Counted from the stretch's first letter, positions 21,253 to 34,527 are shown. The stretch: 64,000 nucleotides of DNA from an uncultured Acidobacteriota bacterium (GCA_963724775.1 CAVRWB010000016.1:28815-92814), one strand, 5' to 3'. The notes: a model not told the origin generated them from the sequence alone. A program made the numbers and translations.

Positions 21253-22047
21253 TTAAGCCTTCATTTCGAACCTCATACAGCACTGCCCGAAGTAGATCTC
21301 GTCGCCCGGCTGGAGCCTGACGCCGCGCGGGCTGCCGCTCGGCAGCTCGATCGTGCGGCCGTCGCGGAAAATGCGCGTGCCGTGCGAGCTGTGGTCGTCG
21401 AAGAGGCGGTACTCGCCCGAGGCCGAACGCAGGATGTGAGCCTGGGCGCGCGATACCGTCTCGTTCGCCCCTTCACCCCCCTCGGAGAAGACCACCTGGT
21501 TGCGCCGCGCCACCCGGCGCTCCTTGTCGAGCACCTCGGCGATTCGCCCGATGTTCGTCCGCGCTGCGGTCAGGGCGTAGGCCTTGCGCGTGGTCGCGCC
21601 TTTCACGACGACGAGTTGAGCGACAGCGCCAGGCTGCGGGTTGGCGACCGAGGCCGCCACCGTCGCCTGGTCGCCTGCAACCTGGAACACACGACCGGTC
21701 TCCCAGTCGGCTCCCTGCTTTCGGATGTACCGCAGCCGCACTTCGAGACCAGGGACCTTCGCGCAGCCCGCCTCGCGCAGCCGCTCCTCGATTGCCGTTC
21801 GCAGGCCGGCCTCACCGCCCAGGACCGCGTCGATGGCCGCGCGGCGCCTGGTGTTGCCGACGACGATGGCGACGTCGACGCGGGTGTAGGGAAAAACCGG
21901 CTTCGAGCGCGGGCCTGGCTGGGCCAGCTCCTCGACCTCGTCGAGAATCGCCCGCCGCATCTCGACCGGCTCCAGCGGCACGTCGCCGCGCGCGGCCAGC
22001 TTTTCAATCCGCTTCTCGAGCTTGGCAACCTTGTCGAAGATGCCCAT
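21253..22047 (-). CDS. FHA-domain protein (FhaA-like: N-terminal DUF3662-like region, C-terminal FHA)
   Basis: The C-terminal region (NIGR...SRAQAHI...GTRIFRDG) is FHA-like. The N-terminus MGIFDKVAKLEKRIE is FhaA-like. Confidence 0.6.
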   Translation of the reverse strand: MGIFDKVAKLEKRIEKLAARGDVPLEPVEMRRAILDEVEELAQPGPRSKPVFPYTRVDVAIVVGNTRRRAAIDAVLGGEAGLRTAIEERLREAGCAKVPGLEVRLRYIRKQGADWETGRVFQVAGDQATVAASVANPQPGAVAQLVVVKGATTRKAYALTAARTNIGRIAEVLDKERRVARRNQVVFSEGGEGANETVSRAQAHILRSASGEYRLFDDHSSHGTRIFRDGRTIELPSGSPRGVRLQPGDEIYFGQCCMRFEMKA

Positions 22048-22084
22048 AGCGATCTCACGAGGATATACCGCAGCAGGCGCAGAG

Positions 22085-22272
22085 ACAGGCGGGACGCCTG
22101 TCCTACGGCCTGCCGCACCGCTGAACAGGCGGCGAGACGCCTGTCCTACGGCCTACCGCACCGACAGGCGAGACGCCTGTCCTACGGCCTACGCCGACAG
22201 GCGACCCTGCCACCGACAGGCGAGACGCCTGTCCTACGGCCTGCCGCACCGACAGGCGGGACGCCTGTCCTA
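22085..22272. repeat. Five to six tandem copies of an about 37-bp unit GACAGGCGRGACGCCTGTCCTACGGCCTRCCGCACC, each with a 7-bp-stem hairpin; no unique spacers
   Basis: Read directly from the sequence. The last copy overlaps the stop codon of the SEDS-PBP gene. Confidence 0.75.
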
Positions 22273-25200
22273 CTGGACCAGACCCAGCTCGCGCGCGGTC
22301 GTGACGATGCGACCGGCGATCGGGGCCGCGACGCTCGCGCCGTAGCCGCCGTGCTCCACGATGACGGCAAACGCGATGCGCTGCCGGGCCGACCCGTACG
22401 GCGCGAAGCCCACGAACCACGAATGCGACGGCGCATCCTGCACTTCGGCGGTACCCGTCTTGCCGGCAATCGGCGGCTCGATCCCTTTCAGGCTGCGGCC
22501 CGTGCCCTCGAGCACCACCTCGCGCATCGCGCGCGCCAGCGTCTGCGCGTCGGCTGCCGACAGGATCGGCCGCGGCGGGTCCACCCGCTGGTTCGTCTCG
22601 TCGGCGACCCAGCGTCCCTGCGGCATCGCCCCCCCGCCGGCGATCGTGGCGGCGACTCGCGCCATCTTCAACGGCGATGCGAGGACCTGGCCCTGGCCGT
22701 ACGCGGCGAAGGGCAGCAGGTCGCGAACCGCGCGCGGGTTGGCCGGCGGCGCGAGCGGAATTTCGTAGAGATCGGCTGTCTCCTGCAGGGCCGGCGCGCC
22801 AATGTGCAGGCCCAGTTGGGCGAAGTAGGCGTTGCAGGAGACAACGAGGCCGCGTTCCAGGTCGATCGTGCCATGCGGCGTCCTGTCGGCCGGATCGTCG
22901 CGAATCGGCCGGCCCCACCCCGGGATCTTCTGCCCGACGCGCCCGTCCGGCAGCCGTTCGCACGTGAACGGCTGGTGCAGGAGCGCCGGGTTCTTGCGGA
23001 GCGCGGCGCTGGCCGTGACCAGCTTGAAGCTGGAGCCGGGTGGATACATGCCGTAGCGCGCGCGATCGAGCAGCGCCGCCTCGCGTTCTTCCGGCGAGGC
23101 GTTGCGCGAGGTCGGCTGCGAGCCTTCCGCGGCGGGCCACGGGTAGCTGACCGCCGCCAGGAGGTCGCCGTCGCCTGACAGCACGACCGCCGCCCCCTCC
23201 TTGCGCCCGGCCTGGTCGACTCCGCTTTTCACGATCTCGCCCAGCTTCAACTGCATCCGGACGTCGATCGAGAGGCGGACGTCGCGCGGCCGCGCGAGCA
23301 GCCGCTTCACCGACTCATCGTCCGGGTTGTACCGCTTGCGGAGGAGGGGGATCAGCTCGGTGAGATCCCGTCGAAGGACCCGGGTCTTCGCGCCGGTCCG
23401 CGCGTCCGGCACCTCGACCACCCTCGCGTGGTCGTCGTAACCGCGCAGCCGCGCGTCGCTGTCCCGCTCGACGAACGACGTGTTGCTTGCCGCCCAGTTG
23501 GCCTGCGTGCGGAAATCGCCGAGCAGATGGTACGTCAGGCCGCCGAAGGGGTAGCATCGCGCTCCGCCAGTCCCGCACGCTGGCGCAGGCGTGACGCCCA
23601 GCTTCGTCAGGTCCTCCGCGTGACCGGCGAGATCTGCCGGCCGGCTCGTGGCGAGGGGAATGCCGTTCCGGTCGAAGATCGTCCCTCGCTCGATCAGCCG
23701 TGCCACGGCGAGCAGCCGCGGGTTGTACTCGAAACGGCGCTCGCCGTCGGCCTGCACCGTCAGCGCCGGGGCGATGAGGGTCCGGTTGGGGTTGACCACC
23801 TGCACCATGGCCGCCCGGCCCAGCGCGGCGAGGAGCAGGACGGCCACGGCGCCGGCGAGCGCCAGCGCCGGGCGCTCGAACTCCGGCTTCGGGGCAGCAT
23901 CCTGCGCGCGCGCGCCGATCGCGAGGATCATCCCGATCGCGAACAGGTTGGCGATCATCGAGGAGCGGCCGTAGCTGAGAAACGGCGTCGCCACGCCGGT
24001 GAGCGGCATGAGGCCGAGCAGGCCGGCGGCGATCAGCGCGAGCTGCAGGACCAGTCCGAGGGTCAGGCCAAGCGCCAGGAAGAACGTGTAGTCGCCGGGC
24101 GCCCTCAGCGCGATGCGCAGGCAGCGCCAGGCGACGAGCCCGAACAGGACGACAACGGCCGCGATCCCCGCGAACCCCAGTTCCTCGCCGACCACCGCGA
24201 GGATCAGATCGGTGTGACCGGCCGGGATCAGCCGCGGATCGCCCAGGCCGAGCCCGGTGCCGGAGACCGCGCCAGCGGCGAGCGCCCAGAGCGCGTGCGC
24301 GACCTGATCGCCGCCGCGGACGACATTGTCCCAGGGCGACATCCACATCTGCACGCGCTGGACCACGGTATGCGGGAAGCCAAGCAGGTAGCCGGCCAGG
24401 AATCCGGAGACGAGCAGCCCCAGCCCGACGCCGACCATCGTCAGACGGCGCCTCGCAACGCCGTACATCGCGAGGAACACGCAGGCGAGCACCAGCGCGG
24501 GCCCGAGGTCCTTCTGCAGGAAGAAGAACACCAGGATGAGCGCCATCCCGACGAGGACCGGCAGCACGAAGTCCAGGCGCGGGACGTCGAACCCGAAGCG
24601 CGCGGCGCCGCCCAGGCGAGGCTCCTTGAGCGAGCGGAGCAGCTCCCAGCGGTTGGCGAAGTAGCCCGCGAGAAACAAGACGACCAGGACGCGTATGGCT
24701 TCGACCGGCTGCGCGCCGAGCAGGTTGACCTTGGCGTCGCTCGTGCCCGGCCCGCTGCCGAAGATGATCAACAGCACGGAGAGGCCGATGGCGCCGAGCA
24801 GCGGCACGTAGCTCAGGCGCCGCAGCTGCGAGCGTTGAAGATCGACCAGCCGCACGAGCATGAGCCCGATGAGGCCGACGACCACGCCTTGCGAGAAGCG
24901 CGGAAACAGCGCGGCGTCACGAAGGGGATCGCGCAGGCTGATCATCATCGCGAAACCGACGCCGCACAGCAGGTGGACAGCGGGCAGGAGCAGCGGATCC
25001 GACGAGAGCCGGCGCGCGCGAGCCGAGATCCAGGCGACGTAGAACGCCGCCACGAACAGCGCGCTCGCGAGGATGAGATCCGTGCGGAATGTTCGCCAGG
25101 CGCGCACGACGAGCGACGGCCGCAGCGCGCCGAGCTGCGACGGCGTCAGCAGCGGGACGGTGACAGTCGTGGAATCCGGCTTCAGCCGGATCTGACCGGC

Positions 25201-25647
25201 GGCATCGAGCTGCGCCCGCCGTCCGCCCAGCCGCTGCCGGAATGTGACCAGCCGTCGGTTCGCCTTCACGTCGGCGTCCGACACCGTGATGGCGCCCAGT
25301 GCGCCGACACTCGGGACGCGCCGCCGCAGATCGCCGCTGCCGTCGGGCGTCGTGAGCCAGGCGGTGATGCGGTCGGCCACGAAGCGGCGCTCGGCGGGGT
25401 CCGCGACGACGCCGTCGAGGACCGGCAGGAGCTGTTCCGCGCGATCGATCGTGTTGATGTCCAGGAGCGGCGTGCCGGCGGTGCTCGCGTTCGCGTCAGC
25501 CGCCTTCGCGCTGAACACCAGCCACACTCCCGCCAGCGACACGAGCGACGCGACGAGGAGCGCCGCGAGTTCGAGCGACGGGGAGCCGCTGCGCCGCCGG
25601 GTGGCGCGGACCGCACGTTCGGCCGCGGTGGTGTGGGTGATACGCAT
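22270..25647 (-). CDS. Natural fusion: SEDS family (RodA/FtsW) peptidoglycan polymerase and class B penicillin-binding protein (transpeptidase)
   Basis: Single uninterrupted 1125-aa ORF. The N-terminal half has about 10 TM helices with SEDS motifs (GHTDLILAVVGEELGFAG; PFLSYGRSS). Then comes a TM anchor and a PBP dimerisation plus transpeptidase domain (SSFK, SCN, KTGTAE). Confidence 0.75.
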   Translation of the reverse strand: MRITHTTAAERAVRATRRRSGSPSLELAALLVASLVSLAGVWLVFSAKAADANASTAGTPLLDINTIDRAEQLLPVLDGVVADPAERRFVADRITAWLTTPDGSGDLRRRVPSVGALGAITVSDADVKANRRLVTFRQRLGGRRAQLDAAGQIRLKPDSTTVTVPLLTPSQLGALRPSLVVRAWRTFRTDLILASALFVAAFYVAWISARARRLSSDPLLLPAVHLLCGVGFAMMISLRDPLRDAALFPRFSQGVVVGLIGLMLVRLVDLQRSQLRRLSYVPLLGAIGLSVLLIIFGSGPGTSDAKVNLLGAQPVEAIRVLVVLFLAGYFANRWELLRSLKEPRLGGAARFGFDVPRLDFVLPVLVGMALILVFFFLQKDLGPALVLACVFLAMYGVARRRLTMVGVGLGLLVSGFLAGYLLGFPHTVVQRVQMWMSPWDNVVRGGDQVAHALWALAAGAVSGTGLGLGDPRLIPAGHTDLILAVVGEELGFAGIAAVVVLFGLVAWRCLRIALRAPGDYTFFLALGLTLGLVLQLALIAAGLLGLMPLTGVATPFLSYGRSSMIANLFAIGMILAIGARAQDAAPKPEFERPALALAGAVAVLLLAALGRAAMVQVVNPNRTLIAPALTVQADGERRFEYNPRLLAVARLIERGTIFDRNGIPLATSRPADLAGHAEDLTKLGVTPAPACGTGGARCYPFGGLTYHLLGDFRTQANWAASNTSFVERDSDARLRGYDDHARVVEVPDARTGAKTRVLRRDLTELIPLLRKRYNPDDESVKRLLARPRDVRLSIDVRMQLKLGEIVKSGVDQAGRKEGAAVVLSGDGDLLAAVSYPWPAAEGSQPTSRNASPEEREAALLDRARYGMYPPGSSFKLVTASAALRKNPALLHQPFTCERLPDGRVGQKIPGWGRPIRDDPADRTPHGTIDLERGLVVSCNAYFAQLGLHIGAPALQETADLYEIPLAPPANPRAVRDLLPFAAYGQGQVLASPLKMARVAATIAGGGAMPQGRWVADETNQRVDPPRPILSAADAQTLARAMREVVLEGTGRSLKGIEPPIAGKTGTAEVQDAPSHSWFVGFAPYGSARQRIAFAVIVEHGGYGASVAAPIAGRIVTTARELGLVQ

Positions 25648-25735
25648 CGAATGTCCTGGGTCAATCCGGTAGGCAGGAGTGCAGTGGGTGCAAGCGGTGC
25701 AGAGAAGCGCCGGGCTACGACGTGCCTACTGTCTG

Positions 25736-27877
25736 CTACCCTGCTACCTCGTGGCACCACTGCCTGACAGCCCAGACTGCCACACTGCAGGCGAGACGCC
25801 CTGCCACGTGACTAGGCGAGACTTCTTCTCCATCTCCTGCGGCTGCGTTCCGCGCCAGTTGCTTGTCCACCTCGTCGAGGCGAGACTGGATCGCGCGCAC
25901 GCTCGCGCTCGCCTCGCCAAAGCCAATCGCTTTCTGATAGAGGTCGAGCGCCTGGCGGTAGTCGTCCGCCGCCTTCTGGAGGCACTCGCGTTCCTGATCG
26001 AGGCCGCGCACGGCCGTCGCCTCGCGGCGCCACCGGTCGGCGCGGTTGCGGTAGCCATCGGCGAGTTGGACCAGCTCGCGGTTCCCGGCCCGATACCCCC
26101 GTTGCTCGGCTTCTTTCAGCACCGCGATGGCCTTGTCGAGATCGTCGAGGCCGTAGATGTAGGTCCGGGCCAGGCCCAGGTACGGGTCGGGCCACCGGCT
26201 GTCCACCCGGCCGGCTTCCTCGAACTTGGCGACGGCGTCCCGGAACGCCTCCGTGGTCGAGAGCTTCTTTCGCTTGCGCGCCTCGCCGTCGATCCGCCGC
26301 AAATGACCCTCACAGTAGCGCAGGCGCGCGGCGGCCCCTCGGTCGCCGGGATCGAGGTTGAGGACATCCGTCAGCCAGGTGGCGGCATCGCGCCACTGCG
26401 CTTCGCGCACCGTCGGCGCGTCCTGCCGGTAGTCGGCGATGACCCGCTCCGACTGTGACATCAGCCGGTCCTTCATCGCGCCTTTCACGCCGACGAGCCC
26501 GATGCCGAGGAGGCTGCGGTGCGCCAGCCCCTGGTATTCGTCCCAGAGGCCCTGCATCGCCGAATTCTCGACGGTTGCGAGCCCGACGCGAATGCGGCGC
26601 GCCGCCGTCCACACGCTGACCTCGTTGACGATCAGGCCGATCACCGTCAGGAGGAGCAGGGCGGAGGCCCACCTTGCCGAGGCGCGGGCGCGAATCGGCG
26701 CGCGCGAACGCGGGCTGCTCGGTACAGCCGGAATCGGCGGAATCGGCACCGCGGCGCCTGCCGCCGCCAGCACCGTGCGGCGAGTCGCCTCGCTGTCGGC
26801 CTCCGCGGTCGGAGGGCCTGCATCCGTTCGCCTCGTGGCCTCGGCTTCGATCAGGACATCCGCCGCGGCCTCCGTCCGACGCGTCGCGTCGCCTGCGTCG
26901 ATCGCCGCGACGGCGACGCCGCCGCTCGCGCTGACGTCGCGGCCGCCCTGCACGGCGATCGCAACGGGGACGCCCGTTCGCCGGGTTTCGCCCTCGGGTT
27001 GCAGCGCCATCCATTCGGCGTCCGCCACCGTCGGCTCGCCGCGCCTCAGCGCCTGCAGGTCGTGCCGAATGAGGCCGGCATCCGCGTAACGGCGCGTGGG
27101 GCTGCCGGCCAGCATCTTGAGAATGATGCGTGCGAGTGCGGGTGGACAGCTCTCGGGCAGCGGAGCCGGCGGCTGCCGCGATCGGATGAGCGACTCGAGC
27201 GCCTGGCTCGTGTCGGCCTCGTACGGCACGGCGCCGGCGACCATCTCGTAGAGCAGGATGCCCACGGACCAGAAGTCGACGTGCGGATCGACCTCGCCCG
27301 TGTCGAGGCGCTCCGGCGAGAGGTAGCTGAGGCTCCCGAAGTCGTTGCGCGTGAGCTTCCGGCTGAGCGCGAGCCCCTTGGCGATCCCGAAGTCCAGCAC
27401 CTTCACATCGCCCGCGCGATTCAGGCGGACGTTCTTCGGCTTGATGTCGCCGTGGATGATCCCGCGGATGCGCCGGTCGTCGAGCGTCGCCTCGAACTGG
27501 TGGGCCTTCTCGAGGAAATCGCAGATCTCCACCGCCACCCGGGCAGCGTCCTCGGCGGCCATCGGCGCCTGCGCGATCCGCTCCGCCAGGTCCTCGCCGT
27601 CGACGTACTCCATGTCGATGTAGAAGTAGCCGGCGATCGTGCCGTAACCATGGACGCGCGGCACGTGCCCGTCCACCTCGCAAAACTGTTCCTGCAGGAG
27701 GGCGCCCCGCCGCTCGGCTTCGCAGATGTCCTTCGAATCGCGGTCCGGGCGGATCTCCACCAGCTTGAGCGCCACCTCGGCACCGCGCTCGGTGTCCGTC
27801 GCCAGGTAGACGTCGGCCATCCCGCCCCGCCCGAGGCGCCGAATCAGCCGGTACTTGCCGAAGTCACGATCGAGCAT
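25736..27877 (-). CDS. Ser/Thr protein kinase (PknB-like) with TM helix and an about 290-aa extracellular alpha-helical domain
   Basis: GRGGMADVY...ALK, HGDIKPKN, DFG and SPE kinase motifs. A linker carries 4 copies of (E/D)ATRRT, followed by a TM helix ALLLLTVIGLIV. Confidence 0.85.
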   Translation of the reverse strand: MLDRDFGKYRLIRRLGRGGMADVYLATDTERGAEVALKLVEIRPDRDSKDICEAERRGALLQEQFCEVDGHVPRVHGYGTIAGYFYIDMEYVDGEDLAERIAQAPMAAEDAARVAVEICDFLEKAHQFEATLDDRRIRGIIHGDIKPKNVRLNRAGDVKVLDFGIAKGLALSRKLTRNDFGSLSYLSPERLDTGEVDPHVDFWSVGILLYEMVAGAVPYEADTSQALESLIRSRQPPAPLPESCPPALARIILKMLAGSPTRRYADAGLIRHDLQALRRGEPTVADAEWMALQPEGETRRTGVPVAIAVQGGRDVSASGGVAVAAIDAGDATRRTEAAADVLIEAEATRRTDAGPPTAEADSEATRRTVLAAAGAAVPIPPIPAVPSSPRSRAPIRARASARWASALLLLTVIGLIVNEVSVWTAARRIRVGLATVENSAMQGLWDEYQGLAHRSLLGIGLVGVKGAMKDRLMSQSERVIADYRQDAPTVREAQWRDAATWLTDVLNLDPGDRGAAARLRYCEGHLRRIDGEARKRKKLSTTEAFRDAVAKFEEAGRVDSRWPDPYLGLARTYIYGLDDLDKAIAVLKEAEQRGYRAGNRELVQLADGYRNRADRWRREATAVRGLDQERECLQKAADDYRQALDLYQKAIGFGEASASVRAIQSRLDEVDKQLARNAAAGDGEEVSPSHVAGRLACSVAVWAVRQWCHEVAG

Positions 27878-27921: not shown

Positions 27922-29619
27922 CTACTTCCGGCGCGGCGCAGGTGTCGCGCCGTGCGGCGGCGCCGGGAGGCCGATCACGTTGTCGCGCAGCAAGTCGGCC
28001 CTCTTGTCGGCGGCCAGGCCCCAGACCTGGTCCTCGGCGTTTCCCGCGATCACGTTGCCGAAGAACACGGCCGACGCGCCCTCCTGAAGAACGACGGCGG
28101 GCGGCAGACGAGGTCCGGTCGAGTCGGGCACCCGCACGCCGCCGGCGGGCGCCTTGCCGTTGCCGGTGATCACGTTGTGCAAGAGCCTGGGGAACGCCCT
28201 GGCGTCCACCAGCACGGCCACCTCTCGGTTGTCGTGCAGATAACTGCCGCGGAGGACCGCACGGGACCCTTCGCCGAAGACCACGGCGAACCGGTCGGCG
28301 CCGGCGATCTCGAGATCCTCGAGAACGGCTTCCCCGCTGCCCTCCGTACCGTCGCCCGCCATCACGGCTGCCGGGCTGTCAATCTTGAATCCCGCCAGCC
28401 GGCTGCCGTTCGTCACCCGCACGCCCGGGCCGGCCACTGGCGCCCCGGCGGCAAAGCGAAGGACGGCTTCCCGCGACCGCCGGGAGACGACGCTGACACC
28501 CGGCGGCACGACAATCGGCAAGTCGTACGCGCCGGGCTCCACCTCCACGATGTCGCCCGGCAACGCCCGCTCGAGGGCTTCGGGTATCGTCGCGAACTCG
28601 GCGTCGGGCTGCGGGCCGACGTGCCACGTCCTGGTCCAGCCGGCCGGGCGCGACACTCGGAGCAGCCAGTCCGGTGCCGCATCGGTCGTCAGCACGATCG
28701 CGGCCGCCGCGGACAGCCCGGCGAGCAGGCCGTAGGCGAGCATCGCCGGGCGCGAGACGAGCGCCTCTCGCACTTTGCGCGCCGCACCGGCCATCCGGGA
28801 CCGTCCACCTGCGCCACCGTCGGGAATGCCGGTGCGCAGCCGGCGTTTTGCGGCCTCCGCGAATCCCGGTCCTTCGACGACGACGACGGTGACGTTGTCC
28901 TTCCCGCCCGCCTGGTTCGCCGCCTCGATCAGCCGCTCCGCGGCGCGACCGGGATCGCCCGCGTGCTCCAGCAGGATGCGCGCAAGCCGCGCGGACGGGA
29001 CCATGTCACTCAGGCCGTCCGTGCACAGCAGCAGCGCGCTGTCCCCCTCGAACGGCTGGTCGATGAGCTCGATGAACCCCTCGTCTCCCGGCTCGTGCGG
29101 CTCGGATCCCACGTCGCGGTAGATCTCGTTGCGACGCGGGTGGTGCATCGCCTCGGTCTCGTCAATCTCTCCCTGGTCCTCGCGCTCGCCGACCGGCGAA
29201 TGGTCGTGCGTGACCTTCGCGAAGCCGCTTGCGGTGGACGCGTAGAGGCGCGTGTCGCCGACGTGCCCGACCGTCAGGCGTCCGTCGCGGACGAGCGCGA
29301 CCGTCAGCACGCAGGCCATTCCGTGCCACGCCGGCTCGCTCGCCCCGGCGCGCACGATCTCGTTGTTGGCCAGCGCGATCGCCTCGCGCACGCGGTCCCC
29401 GGGCTGGCCCGTCTCGCGCTCCAGCCGCGCCCGGATCATCGTCAAGGCCGTCTCGGCGGCCTTCTCGCCGGCCGCGTGGCCGCCGACGCCGTCGATGACC
29501 ATGAAGAAGCCCCGGGCGGCATCGCAGTGAAAACGGTCCTCGTTGTTCTCGCGTTGCAGGCCGGCATGGCTGGCGCCGGCCGCGGCGAGGGCGGGGCGGG
29601 TGAGGGCGGCGCTAGGCAT
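27922..29619 (-). CDS. PP2C-family Ser/Thr phosphatase fused to TM helix and extracellular parallel-beta-helix-like repeat domain
   Basis: N-terminal PP2C motifs (ENNEDRF, VIDGVGGHAAGE, DGLSD, GGKDNVTVVVV). A TM helix LAYGLLAGLSAAAAIVL follows. The C-terminal repeats (NVITGNG, GNVIAGNAED) resemble NosD / pectate-lyase beta-helix. Confidence 0.75.
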   Translation of the reverse strand: MPSAALTRPALAAAGASHAGLQRENNEDRFHCDAARGFFMVIDGVGGHAAGEKAAETALTMIRARLERETGQPGDRVREAIALANNEIVRAGASEPAWHGMACVLTVALVRDGRLTVGHVGDTRLYASTASGFAKVTHDHSPVGEREDQGEIDETEAMHHPRRNEIYRDVGSEPHEPGDEGFIELIDQPFEGDSALLLCTDGLSDMVPSARLARILLEHAGDPGRAAERLIEAANQAGGKDNVTVVVVEGPGFAEAAKRRLRTGIPDGGAGGRSRMAGAARKVREALVSRPAMLAYGLLAGLSAAAAIVLTTDAAPDWLLRVSRPAGWTRTWHVGPQPDAEFATIPEALERALPGDIVEVEPGAYDLPIVVPPGVSVVSRRSREAVLRFAAGAPVAGPGVRVTNGSRLAGFKIDSPAAVMAGDGTEGSGEAVLEDLEIAGADRFAVVFGEGSRAVLRGSYLHDNREVAVLVDARAFPRLLHNVITGNGKAPAGGVRVPDSTGPRLPPAVVLQEGASAVFFGNVIAGNAEDQVWGLAADKRADLLRDNVIGLPAPPHGATPAPRRK

Positions 29620-29712
29620 CGCGGGACAGGCTGAGGAAGACGAGGCCGCCGGCGGCCGCGAACAGCAAGGCCAGGTAGAGGAAGCGCAGCGAGTGCAGCC
29701 AGCTCATCGCGC
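29612..29712 (-). CDS. Candidate 31-aa hydrophobic peptide (MSWLHSLRFLYLALLFAAAGGLVFLSLSRDA) between the FHA and PP2C genes; its stop overlaps the PP2C start
   Basis: Found only by translating the sequence. One predicted TM helix; no other support. Confidence 0.2.
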
Positions 29713-30606
29713 GCCCCCCGCTTCGAAGTCGAGCACGATGACGTTGGCCAGGCCGATTCGCGCCCGCGCCGGCAGCGGCACTTCCACCCCCTTGTCGCGC
29801 TTGCGCCCTTCGACCACCTCGATGCTCGACGGCACGGCCTCGCCGTCCACCGTCGTGCCGAGGCTGCTGAGATCCTTGAGGAAGAACTGGCCCGTCGCCT
29901 CGTCGCGCCGCAGCCGCAGGTGCTCGCGCGACACGTCCGCGGAGGTGTCGAGCTTCACGTCCACCCAGTAGCCCACGCCGCCGCGCCCGACCACCAGCTG
30001 GTTCTTGGTGATGGCGATCTTCTGCGGCCCCCGACGATCTTCATACGCAAGGGTGCCGAAGATGGTTCCGCCCGAGGCTGGCGCGGGTGTCACGGGCCCG
30101 GTCGAGATCACCTGCTCGCGCGTGCTCGTCGACTCGCCCAGGCGCATCGTCGTGATGCGGCGCGTACGCGTGCCGTCGAACTCGGGCTGCTTCGGGAACG
30201 TCAGCTCCGAGGCGATCGCAATGTCGCCCGGCTGCATCTCGCCGTCGGCATCCGGCTCGAACCGGATGTCCCAGGGTTCCGGCGGGGGCTCGATCGGCAG
30301 CGGCCGGTCCTCGCCCCCGACGCCAGCCCTGAGCGAGGCCGCGACGCGGTCGAGTCGAAGGGGCCACTTGTTCGGCTTTGCCTTGCCGTTCCACTTCCGG
30401 ACCTCCTCGTCGAGCGCGCGCCGCGCCTGCTCGACGAGGAGCGGGAAGATGCCCTCCAGCCGCTGGTGATCGGCCGGGTGCAGGTAGACGAAGAAACGCG
30501 TCGGCGCGACGGTCGAGAACAGGAGCGGCTCGACGTTGCCGCGCATGGCGCGGACGATCTCGAGAATGATGTCGCGGCCGGTGGCCAGCTTGTCGGTGTC
30601 GTCCAT
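29704..30606 (-). CDS. FHA-domain protein (FhaA-like)
   Basis: C-terminal FHA domain (VVGRGG...SREHLRLRRD...GQFFLKDLSSLGTTVDGE). The N-terminal region resembles DUF3662. Confidence 0.7.
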   Translation of the reverse strand: MDDTDKLATGRDIILEIVRAMRGNVEPLLFSTVAPTRFFVYLHPADHQRLEGIFPLLVEQARRALDEEVRKWNGKAKPNKWPLRLDRVAASLRAGVGGEDRPLPIEPPPEPWDIRFEPDADGEMQPGDIAIASELTFPKQPEFDGTRTRRITTMRLGESTSTREQVISTGPVTPAPASGGTIFGTLAYEDRRGPQKIAITKNQLVVGRGGVGYWVDVKLDTSADVSREHLRLRRDEATGQFFLKDLSSLGTTVDGEAVPSSIEVVEGRKRDKGVEVPLPARARIGLANVIVLDFEAGGAR

Positions 30607-33134: not shown

Positions 33135-34527
33135 ATGCACGCGCACATCCTGGTCTTCGAGCCGCCCGGTCAGTCCCTTGCCGACCTGCGCGGCGTCATC
33201 GAGCGGGTTCTTGCGGACTCGGCGGACGTGGAGACGGTCTCCGACGCCTCCGCCTTGCTTCAGCGGGTTCGCCGCGACGCGTCGCTGGACCTGGTCGTGG
33301 TTCCCTATTCGGGGAATGAGGAGGCCGGAGGCCGGCGCGAGCGTGCGGAGCCTGAGGGCCTGCGATGCCGAGTTGCCGATCGTGGCGGTGGCGACGCACG
33401 GCGACGTGAAGCTGGCCGCGGAGGCGGTCAGCGCCGGTGCCACGGACTTCCTCGTGCGCGGCGATCGCCTCGAAGAACGGGTGCGAACCCTGCTCGGAAA
33501 GCTGCGGCGCATCGTCCTGCTGTTGCGGCAGAACCGGTCGCTCGCCGAGCAGAACCGGCAGCTGCGGGGAACTGATGCGGAGCGGTCTCGCCTCGTCGGT
33601 GAGTCGCTGCCGATCCGGGAGGTGCGGGAGCGCATTGCGCGCGTCGCGGTGATTCCGCGCCCCGTGTTGATCCTCGGCGAGCGCGGCACGGGCAAGGAGC
33701 TGGTGGCGCGGGCGATTCACGCCGCGTCGGGGCGAACCGACGGGCCGTTCGTTGCCGTCAACTGTGCGGCGTTTCCCGAAGCCCTGCTCGAGAGCGAGCT
33801 GTTCGGCCACGAGAAGGGCGCCTTCACGGGCGCCGACCGCCTCGTGCCGGGCAAGTTCGAGCAGGCGTCGGGCGGGACGCTCTTCCTCGACGAGATCTCG
33901 CACATGCCGACCGCCTTCCAGCAGAAGATCCTGCGGGTGGTCGAGTACGGCACGTTCGCCCGGGTTGGCGGCACGCGGGACGTGCGGGCCGACGTACGCG
34001 TGGTCGCCGCCAGCAATGCCGACCTCGAGCAGGGCATTCGAGACGGATGGTTCCTCGCCGACCTGTACGATCGCCTCGCGTTCGACGTGGTGCGGGTGCC
34101 GCCGCTGCGCGAGCGGCGGGGCGACGTTCCGATCCTGGCGACGCACTTTCTTCGCGAGTTCCTCCGCGAGGTGCCCGCGCTCGGTGAGAAGCCGTTTGCC
34201 GCGGACGCGATGGCCGCGCTGGAGCGTTACGCGTTCCCGGGCAACGTGCGCGAGCTGAAGACCATCATCGAGCGCGCGGCCTACCGCGACACCACGCAGG
34301 AGATCAACGTCGAGGACCTCGCGCTGCCCCGCGACGCGACCAACGGCGCGGAAGGCACCTTCGAAGAGCGCGTGGCCGCCTACGAACGCCGGCTCGTCGA
34401 GCATGCGCTGGCGGCCGCGGGAGGCAACCAGGCGGAGGCCGCGCGCAGCCTCGGCCTGGCGTATCACCGGTTCCGGTACTACCTGCAGAAAGGCAGGACA
34501 GCGCGGACCTCGGAACGGCGAACGTAG
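33135..34527 (+). CDS. Sigma-54-dependent transcriptional activator (NtrC family) with apparently degenerate receiver domain; apparent frameshift near 33330
   Basis: AAA+ sigma-54 interaction domain (GERGTGKELVARAIH, GAFTGA, ESELFGHEKGAFTGA) and a C-terminal Fis-type HTH. The N-terminal receiver lacks the usual DD pocket and the phospho-acceptor Asp (ILVFEPPG...LDLVVVPYS). Confidence 0.75.

Follow-up and report, generated by a model that had tools for sequence, protein, structure and literature searches.

A SEDS polymerase and a class B penicillin-binding protein in one polypeptide: a conserved acidobacterial gene family beside kinase, phosphatase and FHA genes

Can both halves of a peptidoglycan synthase be encoded by a single gene in an uncultured Acidobacteriota bacterium and, if so, what kind of synthase would that be? 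The question arose from a stretch of 64,000 nucleotides (GCA_963724775.1 CAVRWB010000016.1:28815-92814; hereafter the window), for which a prediction made from the sequence alone had proposed that one uninterrupted open reading frame (ORF) joins a SEDS-family polymerase to a penicillin-binding protein belonging to class B (bPBP). The ORF was found on the minus strand at positions 22270..25647, running from ATG to TAG and encoding 1125 aa, and its fused character was confirmed by Pfam matches to FTSW_RODA_SPOVE (PF01098) at residues 223-579 (E 4.9e-50; 170.9 bits versus a cut-off of 26.4; profile positions 6-352 of 356) and to Transpeptidase (PF00905) at residues 847-1115 (E 1.6e-29; 103.5 bits versus a cut-off of 22.1). 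Taken as a whole, the data are probably best explained by a one-chain SEDS-bPBP synthase with 13 transmembrane (TM) helices, fixed in Acidobacteriota, accompanied by a conserved gene cassette and, as we infer, regulated by phosphorylation.

The length of this ORF alone proves nothing, because the antisense strand also holds an ORF of 779 aa (23428..25767, plus strand). The latter is rich in Arg, Asp and Glu, is without coding-type codon bias, and is a spurious product of high GC content (∼70% across the window) rather than a gene. The 22270..25647 frame is a real gene because its codon-position GC is of the coding type and uniform (GC1/2/3 = 0.73/0.51/0.89), its two Pfam matches are strong, and it has hundreds of homologues. 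The accompanying claim that most long genes in the window are frameshifted was not evident from our data: approximately 25 ORFs of at least 300 aa had clean coding statistics.

The anatomy of the protein was derived from hydropathy and from an AlphaFold2 model built on 57 orthologues (predicted local distance difference test, pLDDT, 84.8; predicted template modelling score, pTM, 0.77), which were concordant in placing 13 TM helices in the fused chain. From the earlier count, the ten-helix SEDS core and the single bPBP anchor stood, and the total of ∼11 had to be raised to 13. Residues 219-581 (23905..24993, minus strand) form a canonical 10-TM core of the FtsW/RodA/SpoVE type, identified by Pfam and by sequence matches in the PDB to FtsW (8bh1) and RodA (6pl5); according to hydropathy and the model, its helices run from 220-238 through 561-581, and the loop that joins TM7 to TM8 (residues 423-481) is large and lies outside. 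Residues E316, D380, W439, T479, D480, P555, F556, S558 and G560 were invariant in 57 of 57 orthologues, and Y559 was present in 56. When aligned by BLASTP, D480 (codon at 24208..24210, minus strand) paired with the catalytic D262 of Escherichia coli RodA and D380 with D159; the RodA query was presumably the authentic sequence, its length of 370 and its residue numbering being consistent. The Asp at position 480 was kept in all 85 genomic loci compared (85/85; see below). The D262A replacement abolishes the polymerase activity of RodA (PMC6207328). The SEDS half of the fused protein is complete and carries the catalytic Asp, and lipid II polymerase activity is predicted from its sequence.

The junction lies within one continuous frame, as had been stated, with the tenth helix (563-581), the linker (582-596) and the bPBP anchor (597-615) following each other directly. 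The linker (23860..23904, minus strand) is a cytoplasmic segment of 15 aa, recognized from the sequence and from its conserved length; F590 within it is nearly invariant, and few gaps occur at the junction among the 57 aligned orthologues. The anchor (23803..23859, minus strand) was predicted from hydropathy and corresponds to helix 588-618 of the model; a single N-terminal anchor preceded by a cytoplasmic linker is what is expected of a class B PBP. The covalent arrangement had been described as topologically compatible, and this was upheld: the C-terminus of the SEDS half and the N-terminus of the bPBP half are both cytoplasmic. With both of these ends on one side of the membrane, a short linker suffices and no new mechanism is needed.

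Residues 616-846 (23110..23802, minus strand) form a non-catalytic, pedestal-like bPBP module, identified from Foldseek alignments in which the whole model was compared against the PDB and matched the class B enzymes PBP3, SpoVD and Mycobacterium tuberculosis PbpA over approximately 500-570 columns, pedestals included. The transpeptidase domain proper occupies residues 847-1125 (22273..23109, minus strand), based on Pfam, its motifs and PDB matches to PBP5, PbpA and PBP2. Its active site is intact (S872-x-x-K875, S937-x-N939 and K1063-T-G), and all of the motifs originally listed were present in the translation, namely GHTD (477-480), PFLSYG (555-560), SSFK (872-875), SCN (937-939) and KTG (1063-1065). 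Assignment to a named subfamily failed, with NCBIfam equivalog cut-offs missed for rodA (TIGR02210, 135.6 versus 336.7), ftsW (TIGR02614, 188.2 versus 337.5) and pbp2_mrdA (TIGR03423, 148.7 versus 455). The fused protein is thus a SEDS family member that also counts, on the strength of motifs and fold, among the class B PBPs.

In front of the SEDS core the protein carries an extra segment of ∼145 aa. This had been read as an insertion of ∼150 aa between the first and second SEDS helices; it is instead an N-terminal add-on, because both the Pfam and the PDB alignments to the SEDS core start only at residue 223. The chain opens with a cytoplasmic tail (residues 1-24; 25576..25647, minus strand), in which a motif facing the cytoplasm, M-x-[IV]-T-x-[ST]-T-A-A-E-R, was found to be conserved when 57 orthologues were aligned. 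Among loci whose tblastn match reached the N-terminus, T4 and S/T6 were mostly conserved and position 7 was more variable. Two added TM helices outside the canonical core then bracket an extracytoplasmic domain: helix A (residues 27-45; 25513..25569, minus strand; model helix 23-56) leads out, and helix B (residues 191-209; 25021..25077, minus strand; model helix 184-211) brings the chain back into the cytoplasm ahead of SEDS TM1, both having been located by hydropathy and the model. The domain between them (residues 58-183; 25099..25476, minus strand) has a tandem helix-hairpin-helix (HhH) fold, (HhH)2, resembling that of ComEA. A Pfam search of the N-terminal domain at E = 10 returned no match, including to the HHH families, and no clear GhG hairpin motif was visible in the sequence of the outside domain, which has the fold alone in common with ComEA. 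Our best guess is that it binds a partner protein, a polyanion or a glycan. Literature searches turned up no description of an HhH domain on a SEDS protein.

Conservation of the fusion was assessed with the 120 best database relatives, which were 49-99% identical to the window protein and mostly ∼1070-1210 aa in length. Both PF01098 and PF00905 were found in 119 of them, so that the database search suggested earlier did recover the same fused architecture in relatives. The exception, P0007 (PF01098 only), is a public copy 99% identical to the window protein that runs out of frame after residue 866. Four further database members of the fused family (P0123, P0127, P0129 and P0136) have out-of-frame tails, and the frameshifts in all five suggest that the assemblies behind them contain indel errors. 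The copy in the window is intact and agrees with all orthologues. A genomic scan using one genome per species yielded 577 relatives, and locus statistics were taken from the best 80-85 loci. In the best 80 of the 577, tblastn matches were full-length or ended only by the end of a contig, and among acidobacterial orders and classes no fewer than six were represented (Vicinamibacterales, Bryobacterales/Solibacteraceae, Terriglobia, Acidobacteriaceae, Thermoanaerobaculia and Holophagales). Throughout Acidobacteriota the fused form is the ancestral and fixed one.

Unfused relatives with the N-terminal domain were sought in a profile search among 1.84 billion representatives, resulting in 562 matches (50%-identity clusters); no genuine split form was found among the eight matches of odd length that were examined. 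P0123, P0127, P0129 and P0136 were ruled out as frameshifted copies of the fused gene, P0153 and P0135 as truncated or out-of-frame versions of it, P0168 as a longer PP2C fusion and P0251 as a kinase-tail fusion product. The observations that would have overturned the prediction, a stop codon or frameshift at the junction or orthologues that are always split, therefore do not hold: the relatives are fused and the linker is conserved in 57 orthologues. The fusion is less of a novelty than had been implied. The exact window protein is already present in NCBI and ENA, relatives are annotated as ‘FtsW/RodA/SpoVE family cell cycle protein’, the fused architecture is annotated in NCBI and JGI, and fusions of this type have been described (PMC12516126).

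The most informative context of the gene, which was absent from the original prediction, is a cassette of five genes on the same strand in the order FHA, membrane PP2C, membrane Ser/Thr kinase, fused gene, FHA. The first gene (29704..30606, minus strand) encodes a soluble FHA protein (Pfam FHA, 2.3e-08) with no TM helix and with a position conserved in relatives; its match to FhaA_N was weak and below the cut-off (5.4e-04), and a PDB sequence search gave no match. Next is a membrane-anchored PP2C Ser/Thr phosphatase (27922..29619, minus strand; TM 292-310), assigned from Pfam PP2C, its TM helix and synteny. It scored 187.9 bits against NCBIfam Stp1_PP2C, under the cut-off of 230, and its outside domain of ∼255 aa weakly matched a right-handed beta-helix. 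The membrane Ser/Thr protein kinase (25736..27877, minus strand; Pfam Pkinase, 9.7e-37; TM about 404-422) has an outside domain of ∼290 aa that matched TPR weakly; no PASTA match was found, and the score against NF033483 (198 bits versus 450) came from the kinase domain alone. The outside sensor domains of the two enzymes (weak TPR, weak beta-helix) therefore differ from the Gram-positive PknB/PstP paradigm. Downstream of the fused gene, the cassette closes with a second soluble FHA protein (21253..22047, minus strand; Pfam FHA, 4.6e-05).

The cassette was present in loci sharing 64% (L001) and 51% (L002) identity. Among loci with enough flanking sequence, 59 of 65 had co-directional PP2C and kinase genes immediately upstream, and 70 of 73 had an FHA gene immediately downstream. 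In some Bryobacteraceae the fused gene is present twice in a genome, and some copies have the downstream FHA gene only, without PP2C or kinase within 6 kb upstream, which suggests paralogues with partial cassettes; the loci noted were L011 and L026, both in the metagenome-assembled genome DATJYO01, and L007 and L012. One relative, P0168 (1389 aa), combines PP2C, the conserved tail, TM-HhH-TM, SEDS and bPBP in a single ORF, which could be a read-through or a triple fusion. This arrangement sets the phosphatase right beside the tail that is proposed below as its substrate.

A sub-lineage with a degenerate transpeptidase site provided a second view of the cassette. The Lys of SxxK was lost (replaced by T, G, D or S) in 7 of the 57 orthologues (P0033, P0041, P0044, P0062, P0064, P0067 and P0069; 57-62% identical to the window protein) and in 4 of the 85 loci (L068, L083, L084 and L085), the latter representing three distinct proteins since L084 and L085 encode the same one. 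The KTG Lys was also replaced (Q, M or V) in most degenerate members and was missing from three of the four loci. Degenerate members nevertheless keep the whole bPBP body and every SEDS catalytic residue checked. Homologues of FHA, PP2C and kinase were not detected in the 6-8 kb flanks of the four degenerate loci, which were the only ones to lack all three, and no cassette-linked copy was degenerate. The Thr-rich N-terminal tail was likewise missing from three degenerate proteins. A 240-aa gene upstream of the cassette-less copies was considered as an FHA homologue and rejected, being unrelated to either FHA protein. Because the cassette and the transpeptidase Lys were lost together in four loci, and because of the conserved tail motif and the PP2C-tail fusion in P0168, a functional tie between synthase and cassette is indicated.

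We favour the view that the fused protein is an accessory, regulated synthase. In this mechanism the SEDS half would polymerize lipid II into glycan strands, and the tethered bPBP would crosslink peptides and allosterically license the polymerase through its pedestal, as bPBPs are known to activate SEDS polymerases (PMC6207328); the covalent link would fix a 1:1 stoichiometry. The cassette may make this a phospho-regulated synthase, analogous to RodA/PbpA of the actinobacterial operon: the Thr-rich tail is probably phosphorylated by the kinase, and the mark would be read by the FHA proteins and erased by the PP2C. Several points weigh against this scheme. The pedestal is sub-threshold for Pfam PBP_dimer (PF03717; 19.2 bits versus 24.4), and RodA-PBP2-like packing of the two halves is suggested by a single value, the pTM of 0.77. 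The tail is a likely candidate for a phospho-Thr switch, inferred from its conservation and context, yet it is still present in the cassette-less P0044. More generally, phospho-regulation of the fused synthase is proposed here from genes, conservation and context.

Three other explanations were weighed. That adjacent SEDS and bPBP genes were joined by an indel that removed a stop codon, making the fusion an artefact of assembly or gene calling, has a negligible chance of being correct. Frameshifts do occur in assemblies of these organisms, as in P0007 and the four copies with out-of-frame tails; however, the same continuous frame recurred in assemblies made independently by many projects for many taxa, codon statistics are uniform, and the short, conserved linker with few gaps in 57 orthologues leaves no space into which a stop codon, a ribosome-binding site and a start codon could fit. 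It is very unlikely, too, that the main part played by the tethered bPBP half is to activate the SEDS half allosterically or to scaffold it while other enzymes perform the crosslinking. Loss of the SxxK Lys in 7/57 orthologues and 4/85 loci, with the bPBP body and SEDS residues retained, speaks for such a role, and pedestal-mediated activation of SEDS partners is documented (PMC6207328). Set against this are the three transpeptidase motifs, which are intact in the window protein and strongly conserved in it and in every cassette-linked member, and because of that conservation in cassette-linked members selection for catalysis is indicated.

The possibility that the gene is simply a fused version of the cell's housekeeping synthase, for elongation (RodA-PBP2) or for division (FtsW-FtsI), and not a separate third synthase with special regulation, is also unlikely, if less remote. 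Conservation throughout the phylum and intact catalytic sites would fit such a role, the best NCBIfam matches were ftsW, pbp2_mrdA and rodA, and the analogous cassette of Mycobacteriales encodes the RodA/PbpA pair (PMC11898655). Yet the equivalog scores fell far under their cut-offs (ftsW 188 versus 337.5, rodA 136 versus 336.7, pbp2 149 versus 455), and a sub-lineage that tolerates a dead transpeptidase is hard to square with a sole essential synthase. Furthermore, published fusions coexist with canonical pairs (PMC12516126), and neither the 64-kb window nor the flanking sequence of the 85 loci contained a second homologue of the fused protein, with mreBCD, mraY/mur and ftsQAZ not searched for. 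The accessory, regulated synthase can also be cast in a bolder form, as a self-contained, phospho-switched enzyme specific to Acidobacteriota, in which the HhH domain would position the enzyme on a glycan or partner and the dead-transpeptidase lineage would reveal that a bPBP body can be retained solely to serve its SEDS polymerase as a built-in activator; we regard this extension as tentative and rather doubtful.

Compared with the canonical RodA-PBP2 and FtsW-FtsI pairs (6PL5, 8BH1, 8TJ3), the fused protein has the same catalytic modules and residues (D480 equivalent to RodA D262; SxxK/SxN/KTG) and the same membrane topology, and its domain order fits the way the separate proteins come together in the membrane. 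It differs in its 15-aa covalent linker, its two extra N-terminal TM helices and its outside HhH domain, and the neighbours of the gene are kinase and FHA genes rather than mreBCD or dcw, with the reservation that mreBCD, mraY/mur and ftsQAZ were not searched for. Class A PBPs (PBP1a/1b) likewise combine glycan polymerization and crosslinking in a single polypeptide; the likeness is functional only, the polymerase fold of class A PBPs being unrelated (GT51, not SEDS). Engineered RodA-(GGGS)x3-PBP2 and SpoVE-SpoVD fusions were functional in vivo and in vitro (PMC6207328), and they share the order found here, SEDS C-terminus to bPBP N-terminus, so that a covalent link is mechanistically tolerated. 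Those constructs are artificial and were partly cleaved in the linker, whereas the natural linker is a conserved sequence of similar length.

Natural fusions have also been catalogued, as ‘bifunctional class B’ fusions of glycosyltransferase (GTase) and transpeptidase (TPase), in Microlife in 2025, with a count of 117 InterPro proteins and with examples from Rhodococcus jostii (947 aa), Senegalimassilia faecalis (931 aa) and Pedobacter ginsengisoli (1341 aa) (PMC12516126). The R. jostii fusion has the GTase-pedestal-TPase order of the acidobacterial protein, and that of P. ginsengisoli is flanked, like the acidobacterial gene, by a Ser/Thr kinase and a phosphatase. With PF01098 and PF00905 in one polypeptide and conserved in relatives, the acidobacterial protein is a natural SEDS-bPBP fusion of this kind, and its family alone comprises hundreds of 50%-identity clusters as against the 117 proteins listed there. 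Neither this family nor the HhH add-on, the Thr-rich tail or flanking FHA genes are discussed in the main text of that article, and literature searches returned nothing beyond it on an acidobacterial SEDS-PBP fusion or on SEDS with FHA and PP2C. Two crystallized transpeptidase domains, 4MNR (Eggerthella) and 4R23 (Atopobium), were considered as parts of fused proteins and rejected, the name ‘peptidoglycan glycosyltransferase’ also being given to ordinary FtsI.

The closest parallel to the cassette is the operon fhaA-fhaB-pstP-rodA-pbpA-pknA-pknB of Mycobacteriales (PMC11898655, PMC6554272), which likewise brings together two FHA proteins, a membrane PP2C, a SEDS protein, a bPBP and membrane Ser/Thr kinase. 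All five component types stand together and are conserved in Acidobacteriota, with one kinase rather than two and without its PASTA repeats, in another gene order, with SEDS and bPBP fused and with both FHA proteins soluble. The cassette parallels the actinobacterial operon, a likeness that may reflect common descent or convergence.

The fused family is a large, well-conserved acidobacterial addition to the natural SEDS-bPBP fusions already catalogued. A single-chain synthase present throughout a phylum should be convenient for structural and biochemical work, offering fixed stoichiometry, no need for co-purification and a target of ∼120 kDa for cryo-electron microscopy. Control of wall synthesis by Ser/Thr phosphorylation is so far known mainly from Actinobacteria and Firmicutes, and the kinase, phosphatase and FHA neighbours would provide a second system for it, in a phylum of the Gram-negative type. 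The working picture of SEDS-bPBP synthases is unchanged, tolerance of a covalent link having already been seen in engineered fusions. Of the by-products, two stand out as the most interesting: a SEDS protein that bears an HhH domain outside the membrane, and a sub-lineage in which signalling cassette and transpeptidase catalysis were lost jointly.

Lastly, two features near the cassette were recorded. A sigma-54-dependent activator (AAA+ and HTH_8; 33178-34527, plus strand) is encoded divergently upstream of the cassette and is also found in L001 (3509-4876); it could be a regulator of the cassette operon. The 222-nt spacer that separates the stop of the fused gene from the FHA gene downstream is filled with a cluster of palindromes resembling repetitive extragenic palindromic elements, GACAGGCG-NNN-CGCCTGTC (22084..22269, no strand assigned; sequence and repeat analysis), with four exact and further degenerate copies. 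Another copy lies at positions 45-63, giving 5 matches in the window versus 0.01 expected. In relatives the same spacer is mostly short, about 0-200 nt. The cluster may act as a terminator, an attenuator or an mRNA-stability element.

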